Assembly (NCBI GenBank): GCA_015489285.1
Contig: WGAA01000230.1
Location: 1-35,927 of the forward strand
Source: Anaerolineae bacterium
GTDB taxonomy: Bacteria > Chloroflexota > Anaerolineae > JAADDB01
Reading direction: 5' to 3'
DNA length: 35,927 bases
The number at the start of each line of letters is the position of its first letter. Within the stretch, counting starts at the first letter, position 1. Of the stretch, positions 7,142-30,852 are shown piece by piece. Position numbers and translations under genes: made by a program. The notes under the pieces were generated by a model. The model was given only the letters and a program-made list of their open reading frames with translations. It made no database searches and was not told where the DNA came from.

Positions 7142-7256
7142 ACGGGTACCGTTCCCCCACTTCTCCAACGGGCCCGGATCGGGTATACTTAAAAGGGTCG
7201 TGCCCATCGAGAACGACCGGTCCGGCAACGCGCGGCGGAAGGCGAGAAAGGAACCC

Positions 7257-7892
7257 ATGAGACAGGTGCGGATCGTCCTGGTCGACGACCACCAGATCGT
7301 GCGGGAAGGGTTGCGGAGCATCCTCCAACAGGAGCCGTCCTTCGAAGTGGTGGGAGAAACCGGGGACGGAGCGTACGCGGTGACCCTGATTGCTCACCTC
7401 CAGCCGGACATCGCCCTCGTGGACATCCGCCTGCCGGACATGAGTGGCCTGGACGTCTGTCGCCGGGCCGTCGAACTGAGTCCCCGTACCCGGGTCATCA
7501 TCCTCACGGCGTATCTGGACAGCAACCTGGTCCACCAGGCCTTACAGGCAGGGGCACGGGGATACCTCCTCAAAGATGTGGAGCACATGGCCCTCGTCGA
7601 GCGGATTCACCAAGTACTCCAAGGGGAATACGTCTTCGACCCCCGCGTGACCCACACCCTGGCCGAGTACATCGTGCAACACCCACCGGAAGAAGATGAC
7701 ATCCTCCTCTCCGCGCGGGAGCTCGAGATCTTGCGCCTGGTGGCCCAGGGGCTCACCAACGCGGAAATTGCGGACATCCTTTTCCTCAGCCCGGCCACTG
7801 TGAAGGACCACGTCCGAAACATCACGGCCAAATTGGGCGCGCGCAACCGAGTGGAAGCTGTGACCAAAGCCGTCCGTCAGGGGCTTATATAG
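7257..7892 (+). CDS. NarL/LuxR-family two-component response regulator
   Basis: Receiver VRIVLVDDHQIVREGL ... ALVDIRLPDMSG. C-terminal LuxR HTH LSARELEILRLVAQGLTNAEIADILFLSPATVKDHVRNI. ATG 7257 after AAAGGAA; ORF track start 7200 is less likely. Confidence 0.9.
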   Translation: MRQVRIVLVDDHQIVREGLRSILQQEPSFEVVGETGDGAYAVTLIAHLQPDIALVDIRLPDMSGLDVCRRAVELSPRTRVIILTAYLDSNLVHQALQAGARGYLLKDVEHMALVERIHQVLQGEYVFDPRVTHTLAEYIVQHPPEEDDILLSARELEILRLVAQGLTNAEIADILFLSPATVKDHVRNITAKLGARNRVEAVTKAVRQGLI

Positions 7893-9388
7893 TGACCTTA
7901 CGGGAGCACACCATGAACACGGGTAACGTATCTCCGCCGGATAAGCGTCACCTGGGCTACGCGGAACAAGTCCTCGTCCTGCGTCATCGTATCTGGTCCC
8001 GTCTACGACAACACAAGGGCTTCTCCCCGGCCTCGGTCGAAAGTGTCGCCGCCTGTCTCAACCTCATTATGGACGTGCATCAACTGGAGTACCTGGATAA
8101 GCTGTTAGATCAAGTCAACGGTAAAATCAGCGTCCAGCAATTCATCGACACCGTCCTTCGCATCTCCGCGGAAACGCCCCGTCTTCTCAAGAACATCCAG
8201 TTGCCCCCTTCCCCGTTGACCCCGGAAGCCATCGAGAAACTCCTGGCCGAGGAGGATGTGGAGCAGCTCAGACATTTCCTCCGGCAGACCCTCATTCTCA
8301 TCAGCGAGGGATGCACCCTCCTCACCCTCATCAAACGGGGCGACATCTTACAGCGAACCGTCAACACGGCCTGCCAACTGGTGCAAGGTACCATTGGTCT
8401 CGCCTTAGCCATCGGAGAGGGAACGTGCGTGGACCTCGCCACCTGTGGCACGTCGAATCACGTGGAAATCCCTCCCACCCTCGTCCAGGACCTCCTGCCC
8501 CTTCTCGATACCAAAGGGCCGGCACATGTGAGCCGGCCGGAACGTCTTCCTCAACTCCTGCTGGACATCCTCCGGTACGACGAAACCCAGCAGCTCATCA
8601 GCGTCCCCTTGTGGTACCGGGGGAATCCCCGGGGGTACGTCCTTGTCAACGTTCCTGGGGACATTCCCGTACACGAAGAGGATCTCTACATGCTGGCCGC
8701 GCTGGCCCGCCAGGCCTCCTTTGCCCTGGAAAACCTGACCCTTCACTCCCGGGTCGAGGAGCTGGGGCGGATGGAGGAGCGACAACGCATCGCTCAGGAC
8801 CTCCACGACACCGTCGCCCAGTTGCTTTTCGTCATCGGCATGGAAGCGGAGAGCCTCCTGCACGCCATTCCCGAGGATTCCCCCCTGCACCGGCGGGCAT
8901 TGCGCATCCGGCGCATCACCTCCCGGGCCAGCAATGAGCTCCGCTCCGCCATCGCGGCCCTGCGGTCCTACCCCGTCTCCGGGGAGAACACCCTGGCGGA
9001 CGCGCTCCAGCAGACGGCGGAAGAGTGGGAGCGCCTCTCCAAGCTGGACGTCACCCTCGTGCTCCCCTCCCAATGGCCCACCCTGTCCGGCCGGGCCGCG
9101 AGGGCCATCTACCGTGTGGTCCGGGAAGCCCTCATCAACGTGCAGAAACACGCCCACGCTACAGCCGTCGTCATCAGCGTTACCCCCTTCCCCAACCGGC
9201 TGGTCGTCACCGTCCAGGACAACGGCGTTGGCTTCCCCACACACATCTTCCAACTCCTGGAAAGTGACGTGAACTTCGGCCTGAGGACGATGGAACATCT
9301 GGCCGAGGCCGTAGGGGGATACCTGGAACTTTCCAACGGAGAGGATGGCGGGGCGGTGGTGCGCCTTGTGTTGCCTCTGCCCGCGTGA
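7892..9388 (+). CDS. Cytoplasmic sensor histidine kinase (N-terminal sensory region with possible GAF-like fold, HisKA_3, HATPase_c)
   Basis: H-box EERQRIAQDLHDTVAQ, N-box REALINVQKHAHA, G-box VQDNGVGF. No hydrophobic TM segment seen. GTG 7892 overlaps the regulator stop (TAGTG); alternative ATG at 7913. Confidence 0.85.
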   Translation: MTLREHTMNTGNVSPPDKRHLGYAEQVLVLRHRIWSRLRQHKGFSPASVESVAACLNLIMDVHQLEYLDKLLDQVNGKISVQQFIDTVLRISAETPRLLKNIQLPPSPLTPEAIEKLLAEEDVEQLRHFLRQTLILISEGCTLLTLIKRGDILQRTVNTACQLVQGTIGLALAIGEGTCVDLATCGTSNHVEIPPTLVQDLLPLLDTKGPAHVSRPERLPQLLLDILRYDETQQLISVPLWYRGNPRGYVLVNVPGDIPVHEEDLYMLAALARQASFALENLTLHSRVEELGRMEERQRIAQDLHDTVAQLLFVIGMEAESLLHAIPEDSPLHRRALRIRRITSRASNELRSAIAALRSYPVSGENTLADALQQTAEEWERLSKLDVTLVLPSQWPTLSGRAARAIYRVVREALINVQKHAHATAVVISVTPFPNRLVVTVQDNGVGFPTHIFQLLESDVNFGLRTMEHLAEAVGGYLELSNGEDGGAVVRLVLPLPA

Positions 9389-10428: not shown

Positions 10429-11886
10429 GTGAAGCGACGGCATCTATGGGTGTTCGGAGCTGTACTCTTACTCCTCGTGGTCATCGTTCCCATCGCCTAC
10501 AGCCTTCCTCGCGAACGCCCTCCCGACGATCCTCAACGCTACCTGCAACGTCATCCCGTTCCCCTCAATCACAGCAACCTCATTCAAGGCCCCTTCAAAA
10601 CGCCGCAAGACGTGACCAAGGAATGTCTCCGGTGCCATCCGGACGCGGCAAAGGAGGTCATGCAAACGACCCACTGGACGTGGGAGGGCAAACCGGTGAA
10701 AGTGCCCTGGCGAGACGAACCGGTGACCATCGGCAAGAAGAACCAGATCAACAACTTCTGTATCAGTATCATGGGGAACCAGCACACCTGTACCACGTGC
10801 CACGCGGGGTACGGGTGGAGCGAGGACAAGCCCTTCGACTTCTCCAACCCGTACAATGTGGACTGTCTGGCCTGTCACGCGGACATGAGCGTCTATGCCA
10901 AGGGGTTCTCCGGCCTCCCGGCCAAGGGGGTCGACCTGCTGGCTGCGGCCAAGAGTGTTCACAACCCCAAGCGGGAGAACTGCGGTAAATGCCACTTCAA
11001 CGGCGGAGGCGGCAACAACGTCAAACACGGTGACTTGGACCAAAGCCTGCTCCTCCCGCCGCCGGAGCTGGACGTACACATGGGGCGCCTGGACTTCCAG
11101 TGCACGGACTGCCACAGGACCCAACATCACCGCATCAAGGGCCGTCTCCTCGCCGACAACTACACCATCCCCTATGAGGAGCAGGTCCACTGCACCGATT
11201 GCCACAGCCAGAGACCTCACGAGGACGATCGGTTGAACTTCCACACGAAGAGTGTGGCCTGCCAGACGTGCCACATCCCGGAGATGGCTCCCAAGGACCC
11301 CACGAAAATCTTCTGGGATTGGTCTAAAGCGGGCCAGGATCGTCCCGAGGACCATTACACTTACCTGAAGATCAAGGGCGAATTCATCTACAAGCGCCAC
11401 GTCAAACCGGTTTACCGCTGGTTCAACGGCAACAACAAGTACCGCTACATCCTCGGCGACCGCATCGATCCCACGAAACCGACGATTATCGACGAACCGG
11501 CCGGAAAGATCACCGACCCCACCGCGAAGATCTTCCCCTTCAAGATCCACGTGGCCATCCAGCCCTACGACAAGGAGTACAAGTACTTGCTCGCGCCCAT
11601 CACCTCCGGTCCCGGCGGGTTCTGGCACGATTTCGATTGGGATAAGGCCTTCCGCCTGGCCGAACCCATCACCGGGTTGAAGTACAGCGGCAAGTACGGC
11701 TGGACCGAAACGTGGATGTTCTGGCCAACCACACATATGGTTCGACCCGCGAAAGAGGCCCTACAGTGCGAGGACTGCCACGGCCCCAAGGGACGTCTGG
11801 ATTGGAAGGCTCTGGGATATCCGGGCGACCCGAAGGAGTGGGGGGGCCGTTTCCAGCTGAACTTAGTCCCGGAGGGAGAGAAATAG
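10429..11886 (+). CDS. Octaheme c-type cytochrome, tetrathionate-reductase (Otr) family-like
   Basis: Eight CxxCH motifs (CLRCH, CTTCH, CLACH, CGKCH, CTDCH, CTDCH, CQTCH, CEDCH). N-terminal signal/anchor. CHAGYGW and CGKCHFNGGGGNNVKHGDL resemble the Shewanella Otr family as I recall it. GTG start after AAGGAGG. Confidence 0.75.
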   Translation: MKRRHLWVFGAVLLLLVVIVPIAYSLPRERPPDDPQRYLQRHPVPLNHSNLIQGPFKTPQDVTKECLRCHPDAAKEVMQTTHWTWEGKPVKVPWRDEPVTIGKKNQINNFCISIMGNQHTCTTCHAGYGWSEDKPFDFSNPYNVDCLACHADMSVYAKGFSGLPAKGVDLLAAAKSVHNPKRENCGKCHFNGGGGNNVKHGDLDQSLLLPPPELDVHMGRLDFQCTDCHRTQHHRIKGRLLADNYTIPYEEQVHCTDCHSQRPHEDDRLNFHTKSVACQTCHIPEMAPKDPTKIFWDWSKAGQDRPEDHYTYLKIKGEFIYKRHVKPVYRWFNGNNKYRYILGDRIDPTKPTIIDEPAGKITDPTAKIFPFKIHVAIQPYDKEYKYLLAPITSGPGGFWHDFDWDKAFRLAEPITGLKYSGKYGWTETWMFWPTTHMVRPAKEALQCEDCHGPKGRLDWKALGYPGDPKEWGGRFQLNLVPEGEK

Positions 11887-11889
11887 GCC

Positions 11890-14775
11890 ATGACGAATCT
11901 ACGATCTTTCTCACTGCGCACGGGCATATTCTTGACCATCCTGTCGGCCCTGGTCCTGGGCCTCATCTGGGGATTTCCCTACGTCCGGGCCCAGACGGGG
12001 GTCCCTCCTCTCGAGACGGTGACCATTGAGCTCCCACCCAAAGGTTCACCCATGCACCCGCCGTTCCCCATCCTGGACGCGAACGGCGAGCACGTCCTCA
12101 AAAGCGGTCGACCCATGTCCACCATGCGCACGTGCGGCCAATGTCACGATACAAACTTCATCGCCACCCACAGCTACCATGTGGACATGGGCCTTTCGGA
12201 TATACTGCACCGACGCACACCGGCCTCGGGAGAACCGTGGGATGTCTCCAACGGCCCCTTTGGCCGCTGGGATCCCCTGTTCTACAGGTACCTCTCCCAG
12301 CCCGGGGATGAGCGCCTCGACCTGAGCACGGCCGAGTGGATAATGACCCAGGGGATATACCATCCGGGGGGCGGCCCGGCCGAAATCTCCCGGGAGGGAC
12401 AACTGCTGACCCAACTGGAGCCGGACCCCACCCACCCGGAAACGGCCATCCTGGACGCGACCACAGGCCAGGCCAAGCCCTGGGATTGGCGCCGTTCGGG
12501 CACGGTGGAGGTCAACTGCATCCTCTGCCACACGCCCAACCCCAATAACCAGGCACGCATCCAGGCCCTGAAAGAGGGGGCCTTCGCCTGGGCGAACACG
12601 GCCACACTCCTGGGCACGGGCATCGTGGATAAGACCGCGGACGGCTGGCACTGGAATCCCAACGCCTTTGGTCCCGACGGCAAGCTGAAGAAGGCCTTCG
12701 TGACCATCCAGGAACCGTCGAACAAGAACTGTGCCGCCTGCCACGGTCCGGTGCACACCGACCCCAGCCAACCTGCCGTTGTGACCGAACTCAATCCGCA
12801 AACGGCCACCGTGGGCCAGGTGTTCTCCGGACAACGCATCTCCAAATCGGGCATGAACATCCAGGGGAAGGAAAAGCTCACCCGGCCCTGGGACGTCCAC
12901 ATGGACCGAGGACTTTCCTGTGTGGACTGCCACTTTGCCCTGAACAACCCGGCCCAGGCGTGGGAGAAACGGGAAAATCGGCCGCACACCCTCGTGTACG
13001 ATCCGCGGCGTCTGGACATCGGCGACTACCTCAAAACCCCCGTCCACGACTTCGCCCGGGGCGAGACGGCCCAACACCCCCTCGATCCCAAGAGCAAGGG
13101 GACGATGCGGCGGTGTGAGGATTGCCACGATGCCAAACGGGTCCACACAGGTGTGCTCCCGTACGCCAACCGGCACCTGAGCGTTCTGGCCTGTGAAACG
13201 TGCCACATCCCCAAACTGTACGCCCCGGCCATCGAGGCCTACGACTGGACCGTCCTCATGCCCGACAAATCCCCGCGGGTCGTTTACCGGGGGATGGACG
13301 GCCCGGCCCCCATGCCCGGTGGAGACGTCCCGCCGACGGTGGCCAACCTCGTCACCGGTTACACCCCTGTGACCTTGTTACGGCACAACCGCACGGGGAT
13401 GCCCGAACTGACCACGCCGAACTGGCTCTACACCCTCATCGGCACCACGTCAAAAGGTGAACGCACCACCTCTAAGAGCGGTGGCGACTGGATAGCACCT
13501 TACAACCTGATTACCACCTGGTTCTGGGTGTACACCGATGCCAACGGACGGGTGCGCCCCGTTCGGCGCATCGACCTGGAGAAGGCCTGGTTCGACGGGG
13601 ATACCTACGCGGCGGACGTCGTAGCTCTCTTCGACGCGAACCGGGACGGACAACTGAGCCCCGACGAGCTCGTCCTGGACACCAAGGCAAAACGGGATCT
13701 CATCGCCCAACGCCTGGCTGCATTGGGCCTGAAGAACCCACACATCGAGGGGCGTGTTCGCCCGTACAGCGTAAGCCACGACGTCGCGGAGAAGGGGTGG
13801 GCCCTCGAAGAGTGCACGGCCTGCCATAACACCCAATCCCGTCTCACACGCCCCATGCAATTGGCCCCTTACGTGCCTGCGGGGGTCGAGCCCACCTTCG
13901 TCAAGGACACCAATGTGGTCAAGACGGGGCGCATGGTGAAGAAGGAAGATGGCCTCTACCTCCAACCCGACCCCAAGGACTACGGCCTCTACATCTTCGG
14001 CCATGACCGAATCCCCATCATCGACTGGTTTGGGTTCCTCCTCTTCGTCGGCGTCATTCTGGGCGTGAGCGGCCATGCGGCCCTGCGCATCTACGCGGCA
14101 AAGCGGCGGAAACATGCCCACGCCGGCTCGGTGGAAGAGGTCTACCTCTACACGCCCTTCGAGCGATTCTGGCACTGGCTCCAGGCGACGACCATCGGCT
14201 TACTGCTGGTCACCGGGTTGCTCATCCACCGTCCGGACTTCTGGCCGGCCCTGAGCAACTACCGTTACCTCGTCCCCATTCACAACGTCTCCGCGGCCCT
14301 GCTCATCCTGGATGCCTCCCTCTCCCTCTTCTACCACCTGACCACAGGGGCCATCCGGGAGTTCATCCCCAAGCCGCGGGGCTTCTTCGACCAAGCCATA
14401 CAACAGGTCCGTTATTACACCTACGGCATCTTCCGGGGTGAGCCGCACCCCTTCGAGAAGGTGCCCGGACGCAAATTGAACCCGTTACAGCAGGTCACCT
14501 ACTTTGGGCTCCTCAACGTCCTGCTGCCCTTGCAAATGCTCACCGGTCTCCTCATGTGGGGAGAGCAGTATTGGCCCGACGCCATACAGAAGATCGGCGG
14601 GCTCCACACGCTGGCGCCCATCCACTCCCTGGTGGCGTGGCTCTTCGCCTCCTTCGTCGTGGGCCACGTGTACCTCACAACGACCGGCCTGACACCACTG
14701 GAGGACATCCGGGGAATGATCACCGGTTGGGAACGGATAGAGGTGCCCGAGGGCAAGGGAAGCCATGAAGCGTAA
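11890..14775 (+). CDS. Fusion protein: periplasmic heptaheme cytochrome c domain + extra TM + C-terminal FdnI/HydC-type diheme cytochrome b (CbcL-like putative quinol dehydrogenase)
   Basis: Signal peptide. Seven CxxCH (Cys 82, 210, 281, 344, 409, 435, 642). TM at ~aa 712-735. Then four His-bearing helices (FERFWHWLQATTIGLLLVTGLLIH, VPIHNVSAALLIL..FYH, QQVTYFGLLNVLLPLQMLTGLLMW, APIHSLVAWLFASFVVGHVYL) typical of PF01292-type b cytochromes. Starts 3 nt after the octaheme gene. Confidence 0.8.
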   Translation: MTNLRSFSLRTGIFLTILSALVLGLIWGFPYVRAQTGVPPLETVTIELPPKGSPMHPPFPILDANGEHVLKSGRPMSTMRTCGQCHDTNFIATHSYHVDMGLSDILHRRTPASGEPWDVSNGPFGRWDPLFYRYLSQPGDERLDLSTAEWIMTQGIYHPGGGPAEISREGQLLTQLEPDPTHPETAILDATTGQAKPWDWRRSGTVEVNCILCHTPNPNNQARIQALKEGAFAWANTATLLGTGIVDKTADGWHWNPNAFGPDGKLKKAFVTIQEPSNKNCAACHGPVHTDPSQPAVVTELNPQTATVGQVFSGQRISKSGMNIQGKEKLTRPWDVHMDRGLSCVDCHFALNNPAQAWEKRENRPHTLVYDPRRLDIGDYLKTPVHDFARGETAQHPLDPKSKGTMRRCEDCHDAKRVHTGVLPYANRHLSVLACETCHIPKLYAPAIEAYDWTVLMPDKSPRVVYRGMDGPAPMPGGDVPPTVANLVTGYTPVTLLRHNRTGMPELTTPNWLYTLIGTTSKGERTTSKSGGDWIAPYNLITTWFWVYTDANGRVRPVRRIDLEKAWFDGDTYAADVVALFDANRDGQLSPDELVLDTKAKRDLIAQRLAALGLKNPHIEGRVRPYSVSHDVAEKGWALEECTACHNTQSRLTRPMQLAPYVPAGVEPTFVKDTNVVKTGRMVKKEDGLYLQPDPKDYGLYIFGHDRIPIIDWFGFLLFVGVILGVSGHAALRIYAAKRRKHAHAGSVEEVYLYTPFERFWHWLQATTIGLLLVTGLLIHRPDFWPALSNYRYLVPIHNVSAALLILDASLSLFYHLTTGAIREFIPKPRGFFDQAIQQVRYYTYGIFRGEPHPFEKVPGRKLNPLQQVTYFGLLNVLLPLQMLTGLLMWGEQYWPDAIQKIGGLHTLAPIHSLVAWLFASFVVGHVYLTTTGLTPLEDIRGMITGWERIEVPEGKGSHEA

Positions 14776-14809: not shown

Positions 14810-15367
14810 ATGAAAGGAGAACAGGCACATCGCGAGGCGCGAGGGTGGTTCAATCGGCCCACGAAACCGTACACATACCCCTACTGGGGTGGGATCTTGC
14901 TGGGGATCGTCCTCTTCCTGGCCTTCCTCATCCCGGGAACGGGGCTGGGAGCGTCGGGGGCTCTGGCCGCGGTGGGCGCGTTCATCGTCGACATCATCGC
15001 TCCGGGCCACGTGGACCGGACGCCCATTTTGGCCCACCTGGCCGGTGGCCACAAGAATCCCTTTTCCAGCTGGCTCATCCCCCTGGTCATTGGGATGATT
15101 ATCGGAGGCTTCGTCTCCGGTGTCATCGGCGGACGGGCCAAGTGGGAGACGACTCGCGGTCCTCGCATTTCCGATAAGACCCGCTGGGTCCTCGCGTTCG
15201 TGGGCGGCTTCATCTTCGTCTACGGGGCTCGGATGGCCCGAGGGTGTACGTCGGGCCAAGCACTGACGGGTGGGGCCGTCCTCTCCGCGGGGAGCTGGGC
15301 GATTATGATGGCCATCTTTGCAGGGGCGTACGCGCTGGCGTACTTCCTGCGCAACGTGTGGAATTAA
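14810..15367 (+). CDS. YeeE/YedE-family sulfur-compound transporter, half-size subunit A
   Basis: ARMARGCTSGQALTGG motif and multiple Gly-rich TM helices. ATG 14810 after GGAGGTGG; alternative ATG at 14765 overlaps the upstream stop. Confidence 0.8.
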   Translation: MKGEQAHREARGWFNRPTKPYTYPYWGGILLGIVLFLAFLIPGTGLGASGALAAVGAFIVDIIAPGHVDRTPILAHLAGGHKNPFSSWLIPLVIGMIIGGFVSGVIGGRAKWETTRGPRISDKTRWVLAFVGGFIFVYGARMARGCTSGQALTGGAVLSAGSWAIMMAIFAGAYALAYFLRNVWN

Positions 15368-15388: not shown

Positions 15389-16618
15389 ATGGCGCCTTTT
15401 CCTTTGACTCTGTCCAAACCTCTTCTGTACGTGGTTCTGCTTATTCTGGGCTTTGGTTTCGGCTTTGCCCTGGAAACGTCCGGGTTCAACTACGCGCCCA
15501 ACCTGGCCGCCCAGTTTTACTTCAAGGACACCCGGGTCCTCAAGGTCATGTTCACGGCCATCATCGTGGCCATGGTCCTCGTGTTCCTGGCCGTGGAGAC
15601 GTTCGTCCTGGATTATTCCCTCATCTGGGTGCCCCCCACCTACTTGTGGCCGGGGATCCTGGGCGGGTTGATTATGGGCGTGGGCTTCATCATCGGAGGA
15701 TACTGTCCGGGGACCTCTATGGTCGCCGCGGTGACGGGCAAGATCGACGGGATCTTCTTCGTCCTCGGCGGCATCGCCGGCTGTATCACCTTTTCCGAAA
15801 CGGAGCGGTTCTTCCATTACTTCTATAACGACAGTTACTACGGCCGCCTGACGCTGATGGACGTGTTCCACCTGCCCATTGGGGTCGTTGTGCTCCTCGT
15901 GCTCTTCATGGCCTTCTTCATGTTCTGGATTTCGGAAAAGCTGGAACAGCGGTTCGGGGGGAAGGACCCGGCTCAGGAATCCCGGTTGCGTTACGCGGTG
16001 GCCCTGGTGATCCTCCTGGCCGGTGTGGGCGTCCTCCTCATCGGTGACCCGACGCCGGAACGGGGTTGGGCCCATATCGCTCCCCAGAAGCAACCGCTCC
16101 TGGAAAACCGCAGCGTCTACATTCACCCCGGCGAGGTTCTGAAGTACATCGACGACGACACGGTCGCGGTGGAGTTGATCGACGTCCGGGATGATGCGGC
16201 CTACAACCTGTTCCACCTCTACTGGGCGAAACACGTGCCCCTCGCACGCATAGACACCATCGTGCCCACCCTGGCGAAGAACCCCTACGCGGATTCCACC
16301 CTCGTGGTGGTCATGAGCAACGACGAGACGTTGGCCACGGAAGCGTGGAAGCACCTCGTGGGGGGTAACGTGCCGAACGTGTATATCATGGACGGGGGCC
16401 TGAACCACTGGCTGGAGGTGTTCGGTGAAGAGGATGGGTTGGAACCCCTTCCCGGGCCCTTCGCGGATGAGGAGCTGCACTTCCGCATCCCTCAAGCCAA
16501 AGGGGACGGATTTGCGGCTTCGCAACCTTGGTGGCATCATTATAAAGACGTGTTACAATTTACCCCTAAAGTGAAGCTCCAACGCAAGAAGGCGCCAACA
16601 GGCGGTGGGTGCGGTTAA
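15389..16618 (+). CDS. YeeE/YedE half-size subunit B fused to a Cys-less rhodanese-like domain, with a C-terminal GGGCG tail
   Basis: GGYCPGTSMVA transporter motif and six hydrophobic helices (aa 12-219). Rhodanese pattern LIDVRDDAAYNLFHLYWAKHVP ... LVVVMSNDETLATEAW ... VYIMDGGLNHW, with Met where the catalytic Cys normally sits. Terminal ...KVKLQRKKAPTGGGCG-stop. Confidence 0.8.
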   Translation: MAPFPLTLSKPLLYVVLLILGFGFGFALETSGFNYAPNLAAQFYFKDTRVLKVMFTAIIVAMVLVFLAVETFVLDYSLIWVPPTYLWPGILGGLIMGVGFIIGGYCPGTSMVAAVTGKIDGIFFVLGGIAGCITFSETERFFHYFYNDSYYGRLTLMDVFHLPIGVVVLLVLFMAFFMFWISEKLEQRFGGKDPAQESRLRYAVALVILLAGVGVLLIGDPTPERGWAHIAPQKQPLLENRSVYIHPGEVLKYIDDDTVAVELIDVRDDAAYNLFHLYWAKHVPLARIDTIVPTLAKNPYADSTLVVVMSNDETLATEAWKHLVGGNVPNVYIMDGGLNHWLEVFGEEDGLEPLPGPFADEELHFRIPQAKGDGFAASQPWWHHYKDVLQFTPKVKLQRKKAPTGGGCG

Positions 16619-16652: not shown

Positions 16653-16682
16653 TAGAGCCCGACGCCTTGGCGTCGGGCTCTA
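16653..16682 (+). terminator. Rho-independent-type terminator after the cytochrome/YeeE operon
   Basis: Perfect 14-bp inverted repeat TAGAGCCCGACGCC-tt-GGCGTCGGGCTCTA, followed by CTCGTTTAT (short T-run). Confidence 0.55.
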
Positions 16683-16703: not shown

Positions 16704-17645
16704 ATGCTCAAGTTTTGGGAAAGCCTCATCGGCGGTGTGGCCCAGAAATGGCTGGACCGGCTCATTAGCCCGGCTCTGGCCTTCTGGCTGACGGGGGGAC
16801 TCTTGTACGCGTCCCGCGTGGGATGGGATCGGGTGGAGGAGGTGTTCCGCACCTTGCCCGACTTCGTGACGGTCAGTGTCCTCGCGTTGGCCCTGCTCGT
16901 CGTCGTGGGCTCGGCCACCCTGGTCGAGGGATTGCAGGAGAGTTTGCTCCACTTCCTGGAGGGACATTGGCCCGGCTGGCTGGGGTGGCTTCGCGGTCTC
17001 CTGGTTCGGCGTGAACGTCGTCGCTTTACCCGCGCCCAGGCCCGGCTCCGGGAACTGGCCCAACGCTGGTCCGACCTTACCCCGGAGGAGCGGGAGGAGT
17101 TCACCCGCCTCGACCTCCTCGCCCACTCCTATCCACGCATCTTACCCATCCAACCCACCCGGGTGGGCAACATCCTGCGAGCGGCGGAGGAGTACCCCCA
17201 GCGCCGTTACGGCCTGCGCCCCCGGGTGATCTGGCCCCGCCTGTGGCTCATCCTTCCCGACAGGCCTCGGGGGGAAGTGGCCCAGGCGCGAGAACGCCTC
17301 AACTCGGCCCTGCGCATCATGGTCTGGAGCCTGGCCTTTCTCCTCTGGTGCTATCTGACCATCCCCGGCACTCCCATCATTCGCCCGCGTCCCCCGGTGA
17401 CCGCCCCCGTGTGGGTGGTGCTTGGGGCCTACCTGCGCGTGTGTTGGCCGGCGCTCGTCACCCTTGCAGGCCTTTTGTGGGGGTACAGGCGCGTCGTGGC
17501 CGCAGCGGAAACGTACGGGGACATCCTGCGCGCGGTGTTCGACCTGTACCGGGATGAGCTGTATGAGGCCCTCCGCTGGCCCGAAAAGGGGGAGGAGTGG
17601 GAGCGAGGCCGGGACCTATCCCGGTTCCTCTGGCACGGGAAGTAG
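16704..17645 (+). CDS. Hypothetical membrane protein (313 aa), no family recognised
   Basis: ATG after GGGGGAGGA. Hydrophobic helices at aa ~20-40, 55-75, 215-235 and 250-275, around an Arg/Glu-rich soluble segment (PTRVGNILRAAEEYPQRRYGLRPRVIWPRLW). Confidence 0.6.
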   Translation: MLKFWESLIGGVAQKWLDRLISPALAFWLTGGLLYASRVGWDRVEEVFRTLPDFVTVSVLALALLVVVGSATLVEGLQESLLHFLEGHWPGWLGWLRGLLVRRERRRFTRAQARLRELAQRWSDLTPEEREEFTRLDLLAHSYPRILPIQPTRVGNILRAAEEYPQRRYGLRPRVIWPRLWLILPDRPRGEVAQARERLNSALRIMVWSLAFLLWCYLTIPGTPIIRPRPPVTAPVWVVLGAYLRVCWPALVTLAGLLWGYRRVVAAAETYGDILRAVFDLYRDELYEALRWPEKGEEWERGRDLSRFLWHGK

Positions 17646-28303: not shown

Positions 28304-28406
28304 GCAATAGCCTCCCGGAAGAATGTAGGGGAATCGGGGTGCCATGTGCGCCGACATGGCACCCCGACGAGCGATCCGTCAGAATGGCATCATCCCACGA
28401 GGCCCA

Positions 28407-30641
28407 TTACTGGGGTATCTCGCCGACGACCCCTTCGACGAACCACTTCATGCTCAACATCTCCTCATCGGAGAGACATTGCCCCTCAGGCACCTTCACG
28501 TTGCCGTTCTGGTCCTTGATGGGGCCGCAGAAGACATCCCAGGACCCGTCGATGATCTTCTGCTTCTCCTGCTCGACCAGGGCCTTCACATCGTCGGGGA
28601 CCATATCGCCGTAGGGGCCCAGGTCGACGACCCCGTCGGCCAGACCACCCCAGTACGGTGTCGGATCGAATTTGCCGGCCTGAATGTCCTTGACGACCTT
28701 GGTGTAGTACACACCCCAGTGCCAGACGGGACCGGTGAGCACGGCCTTGGGGGCGAAAGAGCGCATATCCGAGTTATAGCCGATGCCGTAGGCCCCGTGG
28801 TCCTGGGCGGCCTGCATGGGAGCCGGCGTATCCTGGTGCTGGGCGATTACATCCACGCCCGAGGAAAGGAGCGTCTCCGCGGCCTCCCGCTCCGTGGGCG
28901 GATCGTACCACGTGTTCGTCCACACGACTTGGACGGTCGCGTTGGGATTGACCTTACGCACTCCCAGGGTGAAGGCGTTGATCCCGCGGATGACCTCGGG
29001 AATGGGGAAAGCGGCCACGTAGCCGATCTTGTTGCTCTTCGTCATCTTGCCGGCTACAAGGCCAGAGAGATAGCGCGGTTGATACATGCGGCCGAAGTAG
29101 TTGGTGAAATTCTTGCCGTTGGACTTGTACCCGGAGCAATGCAACCAGTAGACATCGGGATACTCCTCGGCCAGAGCCGCCATCGTGTCCATGTAGCCGA
29201 AGGAGGTCCCGAAGATGACGTCATATCCCTTCTCCGCGAAATCGCGGAAAACGCGCTCGGCATCGGCGCCCTCGGGCACGCTCTCCACATACGCCGTCTC
29301 CACGTTGGGGACGTTCTTCTCCAGCTCCAGACGTCCCTGATCGTGGGCATAGGTCCAACCCGCGTCACCAATGGGGCCCACGTAGACGAACGCGGCCTTG
29401 ATCGGCTTGGCCTCCGCGCCCGACTCGGCAGGGGCTTCTGCCTTCTTCTCCTCCGCCTTGGGAGGTTCCTCGCCGCCGGGGATCTCGCCGATCACGCCCT
29501 TGACGAACCACTTCATGTTCCAAATCTGCTCCCAGGAGAGGCTATCCCCCTCGGCCACGGCGAGCTGTCCGTTCTGGGCGTAGATGGGCCCGGCCCCCAC
29601 ATCGAGTTCGTGAGAGACGATCTTCTTCTTGAGCTCGCTCACCTTTTCCTTGATGGCGTCATCCGCGGCCGGACCGAACTTGAAGTCCACGATGCCGGTA
29701 TCCGCATCCCACCAGGAATCGGGCAGCCCACGCGGCTTGAACGTGCCCTCCTTCACCTCCTTGAGGATCTCCGCGTAAGCAACGCCCCAATTCCAATGAG
29801 GCACACCGATGCACCCGGCGCCCGCGAGCTCACACGCGTTGGGGCTGTCGTAGGCCATGCCCCATTTGCCCTTCTCCGTGGCCGCCTGGACGGGGCCGGG
29901 CGTGTCGGACCCGGTGATGATGACATCCGCGCCTGCGGCCAGCAGGGTTTCCGCGGCCTCACGCTCTGTGGGCGGGTCGTACCAGGAGTTGATCCACACG
30001 ACCTGGACCTGGATGTCGGGGTCTACGCTGTGGGCCCCCAGGGTGACGAAGTTGATATGCCGGATGACCTCAGGAATGGGGAAGGGGGCGACATACCCCA
30101 GCTTCTTGGTTTTCGTCTTCATGGCCGCGGCCACGCCGGCCAGGTACTTCATCTTGTACATGCGGCCGAAGAGGTTGTCGAAATTCGTGTCGTTCCACTT
30201 GTACCCCGAGACGTGAATCCACACGGTGTCGGGATATTCCTGGGCCAGCTTCTCCATCGTGTCCATGTAGCCGAAGGAGGTTCCGAAAATGACATCGTAC
30301 CCCTTCTCCGCGAACTCGCGGAAGACGCGCTCGGCGTCGGCTCCTTCGGGCACGCTCTCCACGTACGTGGTCTCCACATCGGGCATGACCTTTTCCACGT
30401 ACTTGCGTCCCAAATCGTGGGCATAGGTCCACCCCGCATCACCGATGGGGCCGACGTACACCCAGGCGGCTTTGAGCTTCTTCCCCCCCTCTTTTTCGGC
30501 CTGAGCGGGCTGTGTCGGTTGGGTTGCGCCCATGGTCTGGGCCGGGGCGGGTTTCGTGGGCGTCGGGGTGGCTTTGGAACAAGCGCCTACCACCAAAGCG
30601 ATGAGCAGGACGAGCAGTACAACTCCCCACAGACGGCGCAT
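28407..30641 (-). CDS. Lipoprotein with two tandem BMP-family (Med/PnrA-like) substrate-binding domains
   Basis: Signal + lipobox LLIALVVGAC. Two ~330-aa copies (nt ~29477-30479 and ~28410-29402) share VYVGPIGDAGWTYAHD and VESVPEGADAERVFR-FAEKGYDVIFGTSFGYMDTM. They are joined by a PPKAEEKKAEAPAESGAEAKP linker. ATG 30641 after AAGGAGAAGGAGG. Confidence 0.85.
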   Translation of the reverse strand: MRRLWGVVLLVLLIALVVGACSKATPTPTKPAPAQTMGATQPTQPAQAEKEGGKKLKAAWVYVGPIGDAGWTYAHDLGRKYVEKVMPDVETTYVESVPEGADAERVFREFAEKGYDVIFGTSFGYMDTMEKLAQEYPDTVWIHVSGYKWNDTNFDNLFGRMYKMKYLAGVAAAMKTKTKKLGYVAPFPIPEVIRHINFVTLGAHSVDPDIQVQVVWINSWYDPPTEREAAETLLAAGADVIITGSDTPGPVQAATEKGKWGMAYDSPNACELAGAGCIGVPHWNWGVAYAEILKEVKEGTFKPRGLPDSWWDADTGIVDFKFGPAADDAIKEKVSELKKKIVSHELDVGAGPIYAQNGQLAVAEGDSLSWEQIWNMKWFVKGVIGEIPGGEEPPKAEEKKAEAPAESGAEAKPIKAAFVYVGPIGDAGWTYAHDQGRLELEKNVPNVETAYVESVPEGADAERVFRDFAEKGYDVIFGTSFGYMDTMAALAEEYPDVYWLHCSGYKSNGKNFTNYFGRMYQPRYLSGLVAGKMTKSNKIGYVAAFPIPEVIRGINAFTLGVRKVNPNATVQVVWTNTWYDPPTEREAAETLLSSGVDVIAQHQDTPAPMQAAQDHGAYGIGYNSDMRSFAPKAVLTGPVWHWGVYYTKVVKDIQAGKFDPTPYWGGLADGVVDLGPYGDMVPDDVKALVEQEKQKIIDGSWDVFCGPIKDQNGNVKVPEGQCLSDEEMLSMKWFVEGVVGEIPQ

Positions 30642-30852
30642 GGTGACCCTCCTTCTCCTTGGTCGTCCTTCTTTGAACTCGCGTTCCATACCTTGGGTGA
30701 CGTCTCGACATCCTCCGTGTTCGGCAAAAGATCGGCCTCATGTCCCCATCGCGCCGAGATCATCACCCTGTGACCTCGGTCATGAAAAGAGCCCGTCACG
30801 CCCTTTTGACATCGCCGAGGTACACCCAAACACGCGGGGAATCACGAATGTA

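Follow-up and report, generated by a model that had tools for sequence, protein, structure and literature searches.

Genes at the locus

The stretch analysed here, called the window in the following, comprises the 35,927 nucleotides of contig WGAA01000230.1 from an Anaerolineae bacterium (assembly GCA_015489285.1). It contains a four-gene operon that encodes, in this order, an OTR-type octaheme cytochrome, a fusion of a heptaheme cytochrome with a cytochrome b, the C-terminal half of a YeeE-type channel, and the protein that is the subject of this analysis, called the target (Table 1). A preliminary description of the span 16106-16618, which corresponds to residues 240-409 and the stop codon of the target open reading frame (ORF), had reported a rhodanese domain without its catalytic cysteine followed by a terminal glycine-flanked cysteine, and had interpreted this cysteine as a covalent sulfur-carrier arm analogous to that of SoxY. 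The observation is confirmed, and every component of it that is accessible to computation came out as predicted. The interpretation is supported as far as computation reaches and is extended here by the context of the channel and the OTR cytochrome. Judged from the sequences, we see an even chance that the target acts as a tethered extracytoplasmic Cys-arm sulfur carrier. As one part of a four-gene module for sulfur redox chemistry and transport, it would link OTR with the channel mouth.

The first half of the Pfam YeeE/YedE family Sulf_transp (PF04143, profile positions 9-180 of 310) matches target residues 38-203 (E 2.9e-16), and Pfam Rhodanese (PF00581) matches residues 247-342 (E 7.8e-10). 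Residues 346-409 are covered by no Pfam or NCBIfam model. The protein contains three cysteines, C106, C132, and C408. The AlphaFold2 (AF2) model of the target, based on 74 homologues, has a mean predicted local distance difference test score (pLDDT) of 83.6 and a predicted template modelling score (pTM) of 0.77, with pLDDT values of 86-97 across the rhodanese domain. In this model the C-terminal extension (346-400) packs on the rhodanese domain, and it ends in a basic strand-like motif, TPK(V/I)KLQxKR. In public databases the relatives are annotated as 'YeeE/YedE family protein', 'sulfurtransferase' or 'rhodanese-related sulfurtransferase'.

Table 1. Features of the operon in the window, of the DNA next to it, and of related loci
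Feature	Position	Strand	Remarks
OTR-type octaheme cytochrome c, first operon gene	10429..11886	+	485 amino acids (aa); PF11783 E 1.6e-55; phmmer against PDB 1SP3 E 1.1e-129, residues 48-469
Heptaheme cytochrome c and PhsC-like cytochrome b fusion	11890..14775	+	961 aa; Pfam Ni_hydr_CYTB at 754-946, E 4.9e-23
Partner half-channel (YeeE C-half, H8-H13)	14810..15367	+	185 aa from M16; Pfam Sulf_transp positions 162-309 of 310, E 3.1e-20
Target protein	15389..16618	+	409 aa; ATG start; ribosome-binding site GAGGAGG 5 nt upstream
Membrane part of target, residues 1-220	15389..16048	+	YeeE N-half (H1-H6 equivalents), H7-like fifth transmembrane (TM) helix, extra sixth TM helix (200-218, 15986-16042)
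Rhodanese-fold domain without Cys, residues 243-345	16115..16423	+	Pfam, profile search, AF2, Foldseek
Family-specific C-terminal extension, residues 346-400	16424..16588	+	AF2, conservation
Flexible arm K401-G409 ending GGGCG, and stop	16589..16618	+	pLDDT, conservation
Terminator-like hairpin closing the operon	16653..16682	+	13-bp stem
Arg-rich predicted membrane protein	16704-17645		313 aa; directly past the operon terminator; no Pfam family
Split modules	L005, L091		Six separate genes, anchored carrier
Split module	JGI contig		Split order same as in L005 and L091
Genes next to a module with fused carrier ending GGCGG	L090:10375-14681		ArsR-type regulator, YgaP-like membrane rhodanese, second rhodanese, and cytochrome bd subunits I and II nearby
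Genes upstream of a module, some of thiol-redox type	L006:884-3748		ArsR-type regulator, two thioredoxins, DsbD_TM-thioredoxin fusion, small ORFs
Porin-linked module	L087:4932-13064		983-aa OTR fusion, both YeeE halves, anchored carrier, NrfB-like multiheme cytochrome, MtrB/PioB-type porin; no cytochrome b

The rhodanese domain

The rhodanese fold, which had been called from the sequence before, is borne out by the Pfam match and by structure comparison. A Foldseek search of the PDB with the full target model returned single-domain rhodaneses with target-normalised TM-scores of 0.65-0.82, and nothing but rhodaneses. A profile search against the PDB gave rhodanese matches with a best E of 1.9e-12, with Sud (1QXN) and YgaP among the weak ones. 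Active rhodaneses are defined by a cysteine in the loop after the central strand. In the target, this loop consists of V308 M309 S310 N311 D312 E313 (16310-16327) within the stretch V-V-V-M-S-N-D-E-T-L-A, thus reading M-S-N-D-E in the place of a cysteine-containing motif. The earlier statement that the active-site cysteine is missing holds in any alignment register, the rhodanese domain having no cysteine at all.

The S310-N311-D312-E313 loop (16316-16327) is strongly conserved. Across an alignment of 121 sequences it reads M/I/V followed by S (115 sequences), N (121), D (119), E (120), a variable residue, A, A (118), and T (120). Among the 150 best representatives of the wider family, which were collected as described in the next section, the column of S310 contains S in 117, G in 18, and C in one sequence, and the next columns contain N in 133, D in 109 or G in 26, and E in 136 sequences. 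By its conservation, the S-N-D-E loop is a family signature rather than the result of decay.

The C-terminal arm

The target ends with K400 K401 A402 P403 T404 G405 G406 G407 C408 G409 followed by TAA (...TPKVKLQRKKAPTGGGCG-TAA), and the codon of C408 is TGC at 16610-16612. The tail is thus the one that had been written down before (...TPKVKLQRKKAPTGGGCG-stop). All of the 120 closest homologues (52-99% identity, about 410 aa, from Chloroflexota metagenome-assembled genomes (MAGs) where named) have the GGCG terminus. Only two cysteine columns are invariant in the 121-sequence alignment, that of C106 in the channel and that of C408 in the tail, and in 105/121 sequences the tail cysteine is the one and only cysteine of the C-terminal domain. 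More distant relatives were collected with a profile of the C-terminal domain in an exhaustive HMMER search of 1.84 billion proteins (50%-identity cluster representatives), which gave 143 matches at E <=1e-30 and 567 at E <=1e-10. A Gly-flanked cysteine within the last three residues is found in 124 of the 150 best representatives, among them GGCG and, in a few cases, GGCS, GGCGA or GGCGS. The sequence GGCGG, as in SoxY, ends 14-15 of these 124. The remaining representatives, those without a terminal Gly-flanked cysteine, are mostly visible fragments, frameshifts or read-throughs. At the level of DNA, 86 of the 89 fetched loci translate to ...GGCG-stop, and therefore the C-terminus is not an assembly artefact; the tail cysteine is kept in 72/72 loci where the alignment extends that far. 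The tail cysteine and the absence of the loop cysteine are both signatures of the family, as judged from the 120/120 homologues, the 121-sequence alignment, and the 150 representatives. The preliminary description had itself named an artefactual or non-conserved C-terminus as fatal to its interpretation, and neither is found (120/120 homologues, 86/89 loci).

In the AF2 model the arm appears flexible, with pLDDT values below 50 at residues 404-409 compared with 85-94 in the preceding residues 341-400. Its -Cys-Gly-COOH end resembles the Cys-Gly end of glutathione. A sorting signal of the LPXTG, PEP-CTERM or GlyGly-CTERM type was considered for the C-terminus and rejected, there being a single residue after the cysteine and neither a TM helix nor a basic tail. 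A tblastn search of a plasmid collection with the carrier domain gave no match.

A few single sequences deviate at the arm cysteine. P0136, an otherwise typical relative on a 1.8-kb contig, ends in GGGWG with a tryptophan (TGG) replacing the cysteine, and reflects a sequencing error or else a loss that occurs rarely in nature. One locus (L088, encoding P0163) ends with ...GGC GGC TGA; recoding of this TGA to selenocysteine was rejected, as the near-identical P0361 ends with GGCG and a 6-nt deletion explains the difference best. Another locus (L089:2920-2940, encoding P0123) reads ...GTC GTC GGC GGC GGC TGA GGA TAG, corresponding to GGG-[TGA]-G-stop, with the TGA exactly at the codon of the arm cysteine. 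This variant is present on one contig. The TGA lies within a strong 12-bp hairpin, for which a fold z-score of -4.8 was obtained, a figure that includes the downstream terminator, and there is no Rfam match to a selenocysteine insertion sequence (SECIS) at this TGA. Either a selenocysteine form of the arm or an error that turned TGC into TGA could account for L089.

Membrane topology and the split channel

In an alignment based on the family profile, residues 22-132 of the target correspond to positions 6-117 of the YeeE from Spirochaeta thermophila (StYeeE), which places C106 on StYeeE C91. C106 (codon 15704-15706) is kept in 121/121 sequences and in 86/86 loci. In the StYeeE crystal structure, the N-terminus is outside and the C-terminus inside, the helices H1, H3, H4, H6, H7, H8, H10, H11, and H13 span the membrane, and H7 flips the topology between the two halves (PMC7449682). 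Of the StYeeE cysteines, C22 and C91 lie towards the cytoplasm and C293 towards the periplasm (PMC7449682). The AF2 model of the target matches the helix pattern of the first half of StYeeE, with TM helices at residues 10-30, 49-70, and 86-103, short helices at 36-43 and 107-115, a long TM helix at 119-146, and a TM helix at 164-190, and adds the extra TM helix at 200-218. Because six spans starting from an outside N-terminus end outside, the C-terminal domain should be located on the outer side of the membrane.

The distribution of basic residues agrees with this assignment. Averaged over the 121 sequences, the predicted inner loops contain 2.2 (+1.3), 1.0, and 3.3 (+ about 2) lysines plus arginines (K+R), compared with 0.08, 0.01, and 1.0 in the outer segments, and the family means sum up to about 10 inside versus about 1.5 outside. 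In addition, about a third of the distant representatives are free-standing proteins of 185-235 aa, whose N-termini typically start with M-K/R-x-K followed by about 17-20 hydrophobic residues and G-Q/E-P-T, a signal-anchor arrangement; those of 205-215 aa begin with a basic n-region and one hydrophobic helix. In the split-gene loci L005, L087, and L091 the anchored carrier follows an N-half gene of 198-215 aa, and by sequence this is the outcome expected from cutting the fusion in the predicted cytoplasmic loop before TM6. Furthermore, a subfamily of 10/121 sequences has extra cysteines, two of which co-occur in 9/10 cases, as would be expected for a structural disulfide outside the cytoplasm. 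The homology to YeeE, the K+R distribution, the free-standing relatives, and the paired cysteines are four independent lines, all of them based on prediction, by which the rhodanese domain and its tail are predicted to be extracytoplasmic. The earlier placement outside the cell, obtained from a simple positive-inside count, is thereby upheld.

The second half of the channel is encoded directly upstream. The mechanical ORF of this partner starts at 14765, within the last part of the cytochrome gene. Because the homologues have 183-190 aa and cover 86-93% of the mechanical ORF, the partner probably starts at M16 (14810). In the numbering of the 200-aa ORF, residues 102-195 align to StYeeE 239-327, and C161 (codon 15245-15247) corresponds to StYeeE C293 on the outer side. 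This cysteine is kept in 121/121 sequences and 80/80 loci. K+R counts of 4.8 (N-terminus), 5.2 (inner loop), and 2.0 (C-terminus) predict that both termini of the partner are inside, which is complementary to the topology of the target half.

Both halves thus belong to Sulf_transp (target E 2.9e-16, partner E 3.1e-20), with C106 equivalent to C91 and C161 to C293. They do not qualify as TsuA/YeeE equivalogs, scoring 11.9-33.4 bits compared with cut-offs of 400-645, being encoded by two genes, and having two relay cysteines in place of three, with no cysteine at the equivalent of C22. The best NCBIfam matches of both halves are selenium-related YedE/FdhT models (E 1.4e-07 and 2.1e-08), far below the cut-off. 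YeeE is not among the top matches of a Foldseek search with the half-channel alone, and the YeeE assignment therefore rests on the profile searches. One relative, P0025 (606 aa, L021:6636-8438), has partner and target in a single ORF joined by the linker TKQVN, with ATT at the site of the ATG of the target. An indel or assembly artefact is the probable origin, because the 5-residue linker would have to connect an inside C-terminus to an outside N-terminus, which is implausible.

The cytochromes of the operon

The OTR homologue has an N-terminal signal anchor and eight CxxCH motifs. In 1SP3, the counterparts of its residues K103 and C111 are chain positions 56 and 64, Lys56 and Cys64 of the Shewanella OTR, the former being the distal lysine ligand of heme 2 and the latter a nearby cysteine. 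Both K103 and C111 are kept in 59/59 loci. By sequence features, namely the eight CxxCH motifs, PF11783, and the equivalents of the lysine and the cysteine, the protein is an OTR. In the fusion cytochrome, a signal peptide and seven CxxCH motifs are combined with a membrane di-heme b domain at the C-terminus. It matches the NCBIfam thiosulfate reductase cytochrome B subunit with E 2.7e-41, below the curated cut-off. The heptaheme and the cytochrome b parts are either fused or separate among the relatives.

Synteny across genomes

When one genome for each GTDB species was scanned with the profile of the carrier domain, relatives turned up in at least 539 species-level genomes. The best 80 of the at least 539 loci belong nearly all to Chloroflexota (Anaerolineales, Caldilineales, Ardenticatenaceae, Promineifilaceae), and one belongs to a Vicinamibacterales MAG. 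All 57 loci whose upstream flank measures 5.8 kb or more show, by tblastn, the collinear order of OTR, multiheme cytochrome and cytochrome b, C-half, and N-half with carrier. This order is also found on 6 other metagenome contigs, whose architectures are more distant or have the genes split (Table 1). Because the distant architectures, whether split, fused or porin-linked, all retain them, the invariant core consists of OTR, the two YeeE halves, and the Cys-arm carrier.

Some of the variants have additional genes. The arrangement of L087 suggests coupling to a porin-cytochrome conduit; its host is apparently a diderm, and a DsrC gene is located at the edge of the locus. The DsbD/CcdA and thioredoxin genes were considered as a dedicated supply of reductant for extracytoplasmic thiols, and this was dropped, as they are confined to L006 among the fetched loci. 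A regulator of the ArsR/HTH_20 type (about 105-120 aa) is encoded directly upstream of otr in most of the loci, about 38 of them, including L002, L003, and L004, and is absent from the window.

Proposed role of the carrier

In the model that we favour, the N-half of the target (about 190 residues, with the inner-side Cys106) would pair with the upstream 185-aa C-half (with the outer-side Cys161) to form a split channel. The rhodanese domain, having no catalytic cysteine, would serve as scaffold or docking module on the outer face of the membrane. The reactive group would be Cys408, the penultimate residue of a Gly-rich flexible arm of about 6-9 residues, and its thiolate could be loaded covalently as a persulfide, polysulfide or S-thiosulfonate. 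A possible route of loading is the attack of C408-S- on tetrathionate or polysulfide, giving C408-S-S-SO3- or C408-S-Sn-, respectively. Tetrathionate is reported to turn the cysteines of DsrE3A and TusA into S-thiosulfonates (PMC4175335). The small Gly-flanked arm could enter the active-site channel of OTR near the Lys-ligated heme and Cys111, where the adduct would be reduced or oxidised. Electrons would flow between OTR and the quinone pool, in either direction, via the heptaheme-cytochrome b protein, whose cytochrome b domain is presumed to be the link to the quinone pool. The arm might also reach the outer vestibule of its own channel and give sulfur to, or take sulfur from, the relay of Cys161 and Cys106.

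In a reductive cycle, electrons would pass from quinol to cytochrome b and the heptaheme domain, OTR would reduce the adduct, and the thiosulfate or sulfane sulfur that is released or transferred would pass C161 and then C106 on its way into the cell. In the reverse direction, sulfide or thiosulfate would become attached to the arm by oxidative coupling, in the manner of SoxXA, and the electrons would be given to quinone. We lean towards reduction of OTR by quinol because the cytochrome b is PhsC-like and OTR acts as a reductase in vitro. What the sequences show is the domain architecture, the loss of the loop cysteine, the invariant arm cysteine, the flexible arm of the model, the predicted outside topology, and the strict synteny with OTR and the partner half-channel. 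That sulfur is loaded covalently, which two partners take part in the hand-off, and in which direction electrons and sulfur flow are inferred; direction and cargo are the weakest parts of the model.

On the outside, the arm would correspond to what the 'fourth cysteine' of YeeD/TsuB is in the cytoplasm. In YeeD this fourth cysteine is Cys17, which sits where YeeE has its inner exit and has been found with -S-S-, -S-SO3-, and -S-S2O3- adducts (PMC11073785). The sulfane sulfur bound to SoxYZ has been proposed to enter the cytoplasm via the YeeE-like SoxT1A (PMC11582611). In addition, a divergent soxY-soxZ pair adjoins otr in lucinid symbionts (PMC11237559), and thus OTR appears together with a bona fide Cys-arm carrier in another lineage. 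Taking the model one step further, the physiological substrate of OTR might here be not a free ion but a sulfur adduct on the C-terminal cysteine of the arm. The module would then be a hitherto unrecognised, Sox-independent extracytoplasmic sulfur redox pathway, in which a protein-bound intermediate would be processed by a quinone-wired multiheme enzyme and channelled directly through the split YeeE pore. The SoxY principle would thus have been invented a second time, by convergence, with a rhodanese as the scaffold. We offer this extension tentatively and consider it possible rather than probable.

Several points weigh against the carrier model. Conservation, location, and synteny are the basis of every functional step in it. 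In vitro, nitrite and hydroxylamine are better substrates of OTR than tetrathionate (as summarised in PMC12949373), so that the module might not act on sulfur at all. Because the YedE/FdhT models are the best NCBIfam matches of both halves, even if far below the cut-off, the carried chalcogen could be selenium. The acidic S-N-D-E loop, in spite of its strong conservation, carries no role in the model. AF2 docked the arm nowhere. The AF2 model of channel and carrier as one chain, P0025, is poor (pLDDT 63, pTM 0.41, tail below 45) and is uninformative on the docking of the arm; in the alignment made for this model, MAFFT put the partner homologues onto the other, homologous half except when the target rows were limited to 10. 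The upstream ArsR-type regulator has a single conserved cysteine in the motif LHAxIC(S/Q)AL. Sulfane sensors of the SqrR/BigR type have a two-Cys signature, and with its one conserved cysteine we make no claim that the regulator is a sulfane-sulfur sensor.

The conservation of the arm cysteine could also be explained by a redox gate. Cys408 would form a reversible disulfide or a mixed di- or trisulfide with Cys161 of the partner and so plug or open the pore according to the redox or sulfur state outside. The two residues are invariant and, by prediction, share the outer side, the channel to be gated is the one that bears the arm, and two channel cysteines of StYeeE form a disulfide in crystals (PMC7449682). 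However, gating would leave unexplained the obligatory synteny with OTR and the electron wire (57/57 loci) as well as the equal conservation of those carriers that are anchored and not fused. Convergence on the SoxY-type GGCGG is also more typical of arms that enter the active sites of enzymes. We therefore regard a redox gate as unlikely.

The strict synteny with OTR, the conservation of Lys103 and Cys111, and an S-N-D-E surface loop that is conserved without a catalytic role would all be compatible with a docking function. The dead rhodanese and the tail would recruit OTR to the channel, and Cys408 would tune or complete its active site as an exchangeable axial heme ligand or as disulfide partner of Cys111. 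Hemes ligated by cysteine or cysteine persulfide are known from sulfur cytochromes such as SoxXA and TsdA. However, a flexible arm of low model confidence would be unusual as a fixed ligand, the channel cysteines would be left without a role, and the Shewanella OTR is active alone in vitro (as summarised in PMC12949373). We consider this explanation rather improbable.

The cargo of the same arm could be selenium or another chalcogen, with selenite-derived species being reduced or imported as Cys-S-Se adducts. The YedE/FdhT matches (E 1.4e-07 and 2.1e-08, far below the cut-off) and the TGA of L089, which takes the place of the cysteine codon before glycine and stop, point in this direction, and a YedE-like protein moves selenium in Methanococcus (PMC11582611). 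However, the scores are far below the family cut-offs, the TsuA models match too, the window contains no selenium-utilisation genes, no SECIS family matches at the TGA of L089, and the only other candidate for recoding, L088, is a 6-nt deletion. Selenium cargo is thus distinctly improbable.

Natural YeeE-YeeD fusions, which have an acceptor with a cysteine behind the channel (PMC11073785), and the fact that the outside topology rests on prediction would allow for a YeeD/TsuB-like domain on the inside that takes thiosulfate from the inner exit of the channel, but the six TM helices from an outside N-terminus, the K+R count (about 10 versus about 1.5), the signal anchors of the free-standing relatives, the conserved operon partners other than the channel being c-type cytochromes that mature outside the cytoplasm, and the absence of a TusA fold or CPxP motif together make such a cytoplasmic acceptor very improbable. 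A chemistry of the module that does not involve sulfur, for which the preference of OTR for nitrite and hydroxylamine in vitro speaks (PMC12949373), is a background possibility that is hard to reconcile with two YeeE halves and an invariant thiol arm.

Comparison with known systems

SoxY carries all intermediates of the Sox pathway on its GGCGG arm. The target is probably analogous to SoxY in its way of working, and is not homologous to it. Both are encoded together with c-type cytochromes and are, in the case of the target by prediction, extracytoplasmic, and in both a Gly-flanked C-terminal cysteine arm (GGCGG in SoxY, GGCG in the target) follows a K-V-K-type strand. The target and most of its relatives are one residue shorter after the cysteine, the exact GGCGG being found in 14-15/150 representatives. 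In contrast, the target has a rhodanese fold and SoxY a beta-sandwich, with no sequence relationship between them, and there is no SoxY family among the Pfam matches of the target up to E 0.1. The target also has neither a SoxZ partner nor a soluble Tat-exported form; it is membrane-tethered or fused to the channel. As an analogy, the proposed likeness to SoxY gains support from the shared compartment and operon with c-type cytochromes, from GGCGG in 14-15 clusters, and from the soxY-soxZ pair next to otr (PMC11237559). Genes for SoxXA, SoxB, SoxCD or SoxZ are not present in the window, and none for SoxZ, SoxXA or SoxB is found among the Pfam-annotated genes of the metagenome contigs examined.

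DsrC has its penultimate cysteine on a C-terminal arm and ends with ...PTGCV, the target with ...PTGGGCG. DsrC/TusE and the target thus share a flexible C-terminal arm whose penultimate cysteine enters the active site of a partner and carries sulfur, which for the target is a proposal. However, DsrC/TusE are cytoplasmic and have the DsrC fold (PF04358), a second arm cysteine, and DsrAB as partner, none of which applies to the target; PF04358 is not among its Pfam matches. Wolinella Sud, which passes polysulfide-sulfur to a respiratory reductase, E. coli PspE, and YgaP are rhodanese folds that take part in sulfur trafficking at or outside the membrane. These proteins bind sulfur at the canonical loop cysteine, whereas the family of the target lacks this residue and has the thiol on the C-terminal arm.

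TsuA/YeeE with TsuB/YeeD also combine a YeeE-fold pore that contains a cysteine relay with a single-Cys accessory protein, and fusions of channel and acceptor occur in both systems (PMC7449682, PMC11073785). The cysteine of TsuB/YeeD extends the relay of YeeE and becomes persulfidated or thiosulfonated (PMC7449682, PMC11073785). In contrast, the channel of the target is split into two genes and has no C22-equivalent cysteine, and the acceptor is a Cys-less rhodanese with a tail cysteine that is predicted on the outer side. No Pfam or NCBIfam match to the TusA/SirA family was found in the target. PmpA and PmpB resemble the two halves in being homologous to each other and in having one conserved cysteine each, equivalent to YeeE C91 and C293, and a heterodimer has been proposed for them (PMC11582611). 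However, they have about 130 aa and four TM helices, whereas the N-half of the target has two extra TM helices and an outer carrier domain, and the pair is encoded in a cytochrome operon. The first gene of the operon encodes a close homologue of the Shewanella oneidensis OTR (1SP3; E 1.1e-129, eight CxxCH motifs, Lys56 and Cys64 equivalents). The Shewanella protein is described as soluble and encoded by otr (PMC12949373), whereas the homologue comes obligately with a dedicated heme wire that includes cytochrome b, with a split YeeE channel, and with the Cys-arm carrier.

Cys-arm sulfur carriers are already known; new here would be the scaffold, the tethering to a YeeE pore, and the enzyme partner. 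In the published full-text literature that was searched, no description of the rhodanese-plus-tail family or of the module of OTR, YeeE, and carrier was found. OTR was crystallised in 2004, yet according to a 2026 study its physiological function has never been established, and deletion of otr is without a tetrathionate phenotype (PMC12949373). The linkage to the carrier and the split YeeE channel in 57/57 loci provides OTR with a testable partner, the loaded arm being the candidate substrate. If the carrier model is true, a second and structurally unrelated scaffold would join the small set of swinging-arm sulfur carriers (SoxY, DsrC), and a rhodanese could be repurposed by relocating its thiol to the C-terminus. 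The target would also be the first candidate for an outer hand-off partner that is physically fused to a YeeE-family pore, which bears on the loading step outside. The Anaerolineae and other Chloroflexota of sediments, wastewater, and sulfidic habitats would then have a widespread capacity for sulfur cycling.

Flanking regions

The genes flanking the operon in the window are housekeeping genes or unrelated to sulfur metabolism, and include a two-component system, pantothenate kinase, DJ-1/PfpI, and ABC transporters. The 313-aa protein encoded downstream of the terminator is absent from all related loci that were compared. Further downstream, the product of a long ORF on the forward strand (28344-30773, 809 aa) has no Pfam match, and this ORF overlaps a long ORF of 760 aa on the opposite strand (28407-30689). 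A LuxR-type response regulator and a GAF histidine kinase are encoded at 7200-9388, and the pantothenate kinase gene lies between these and otr.

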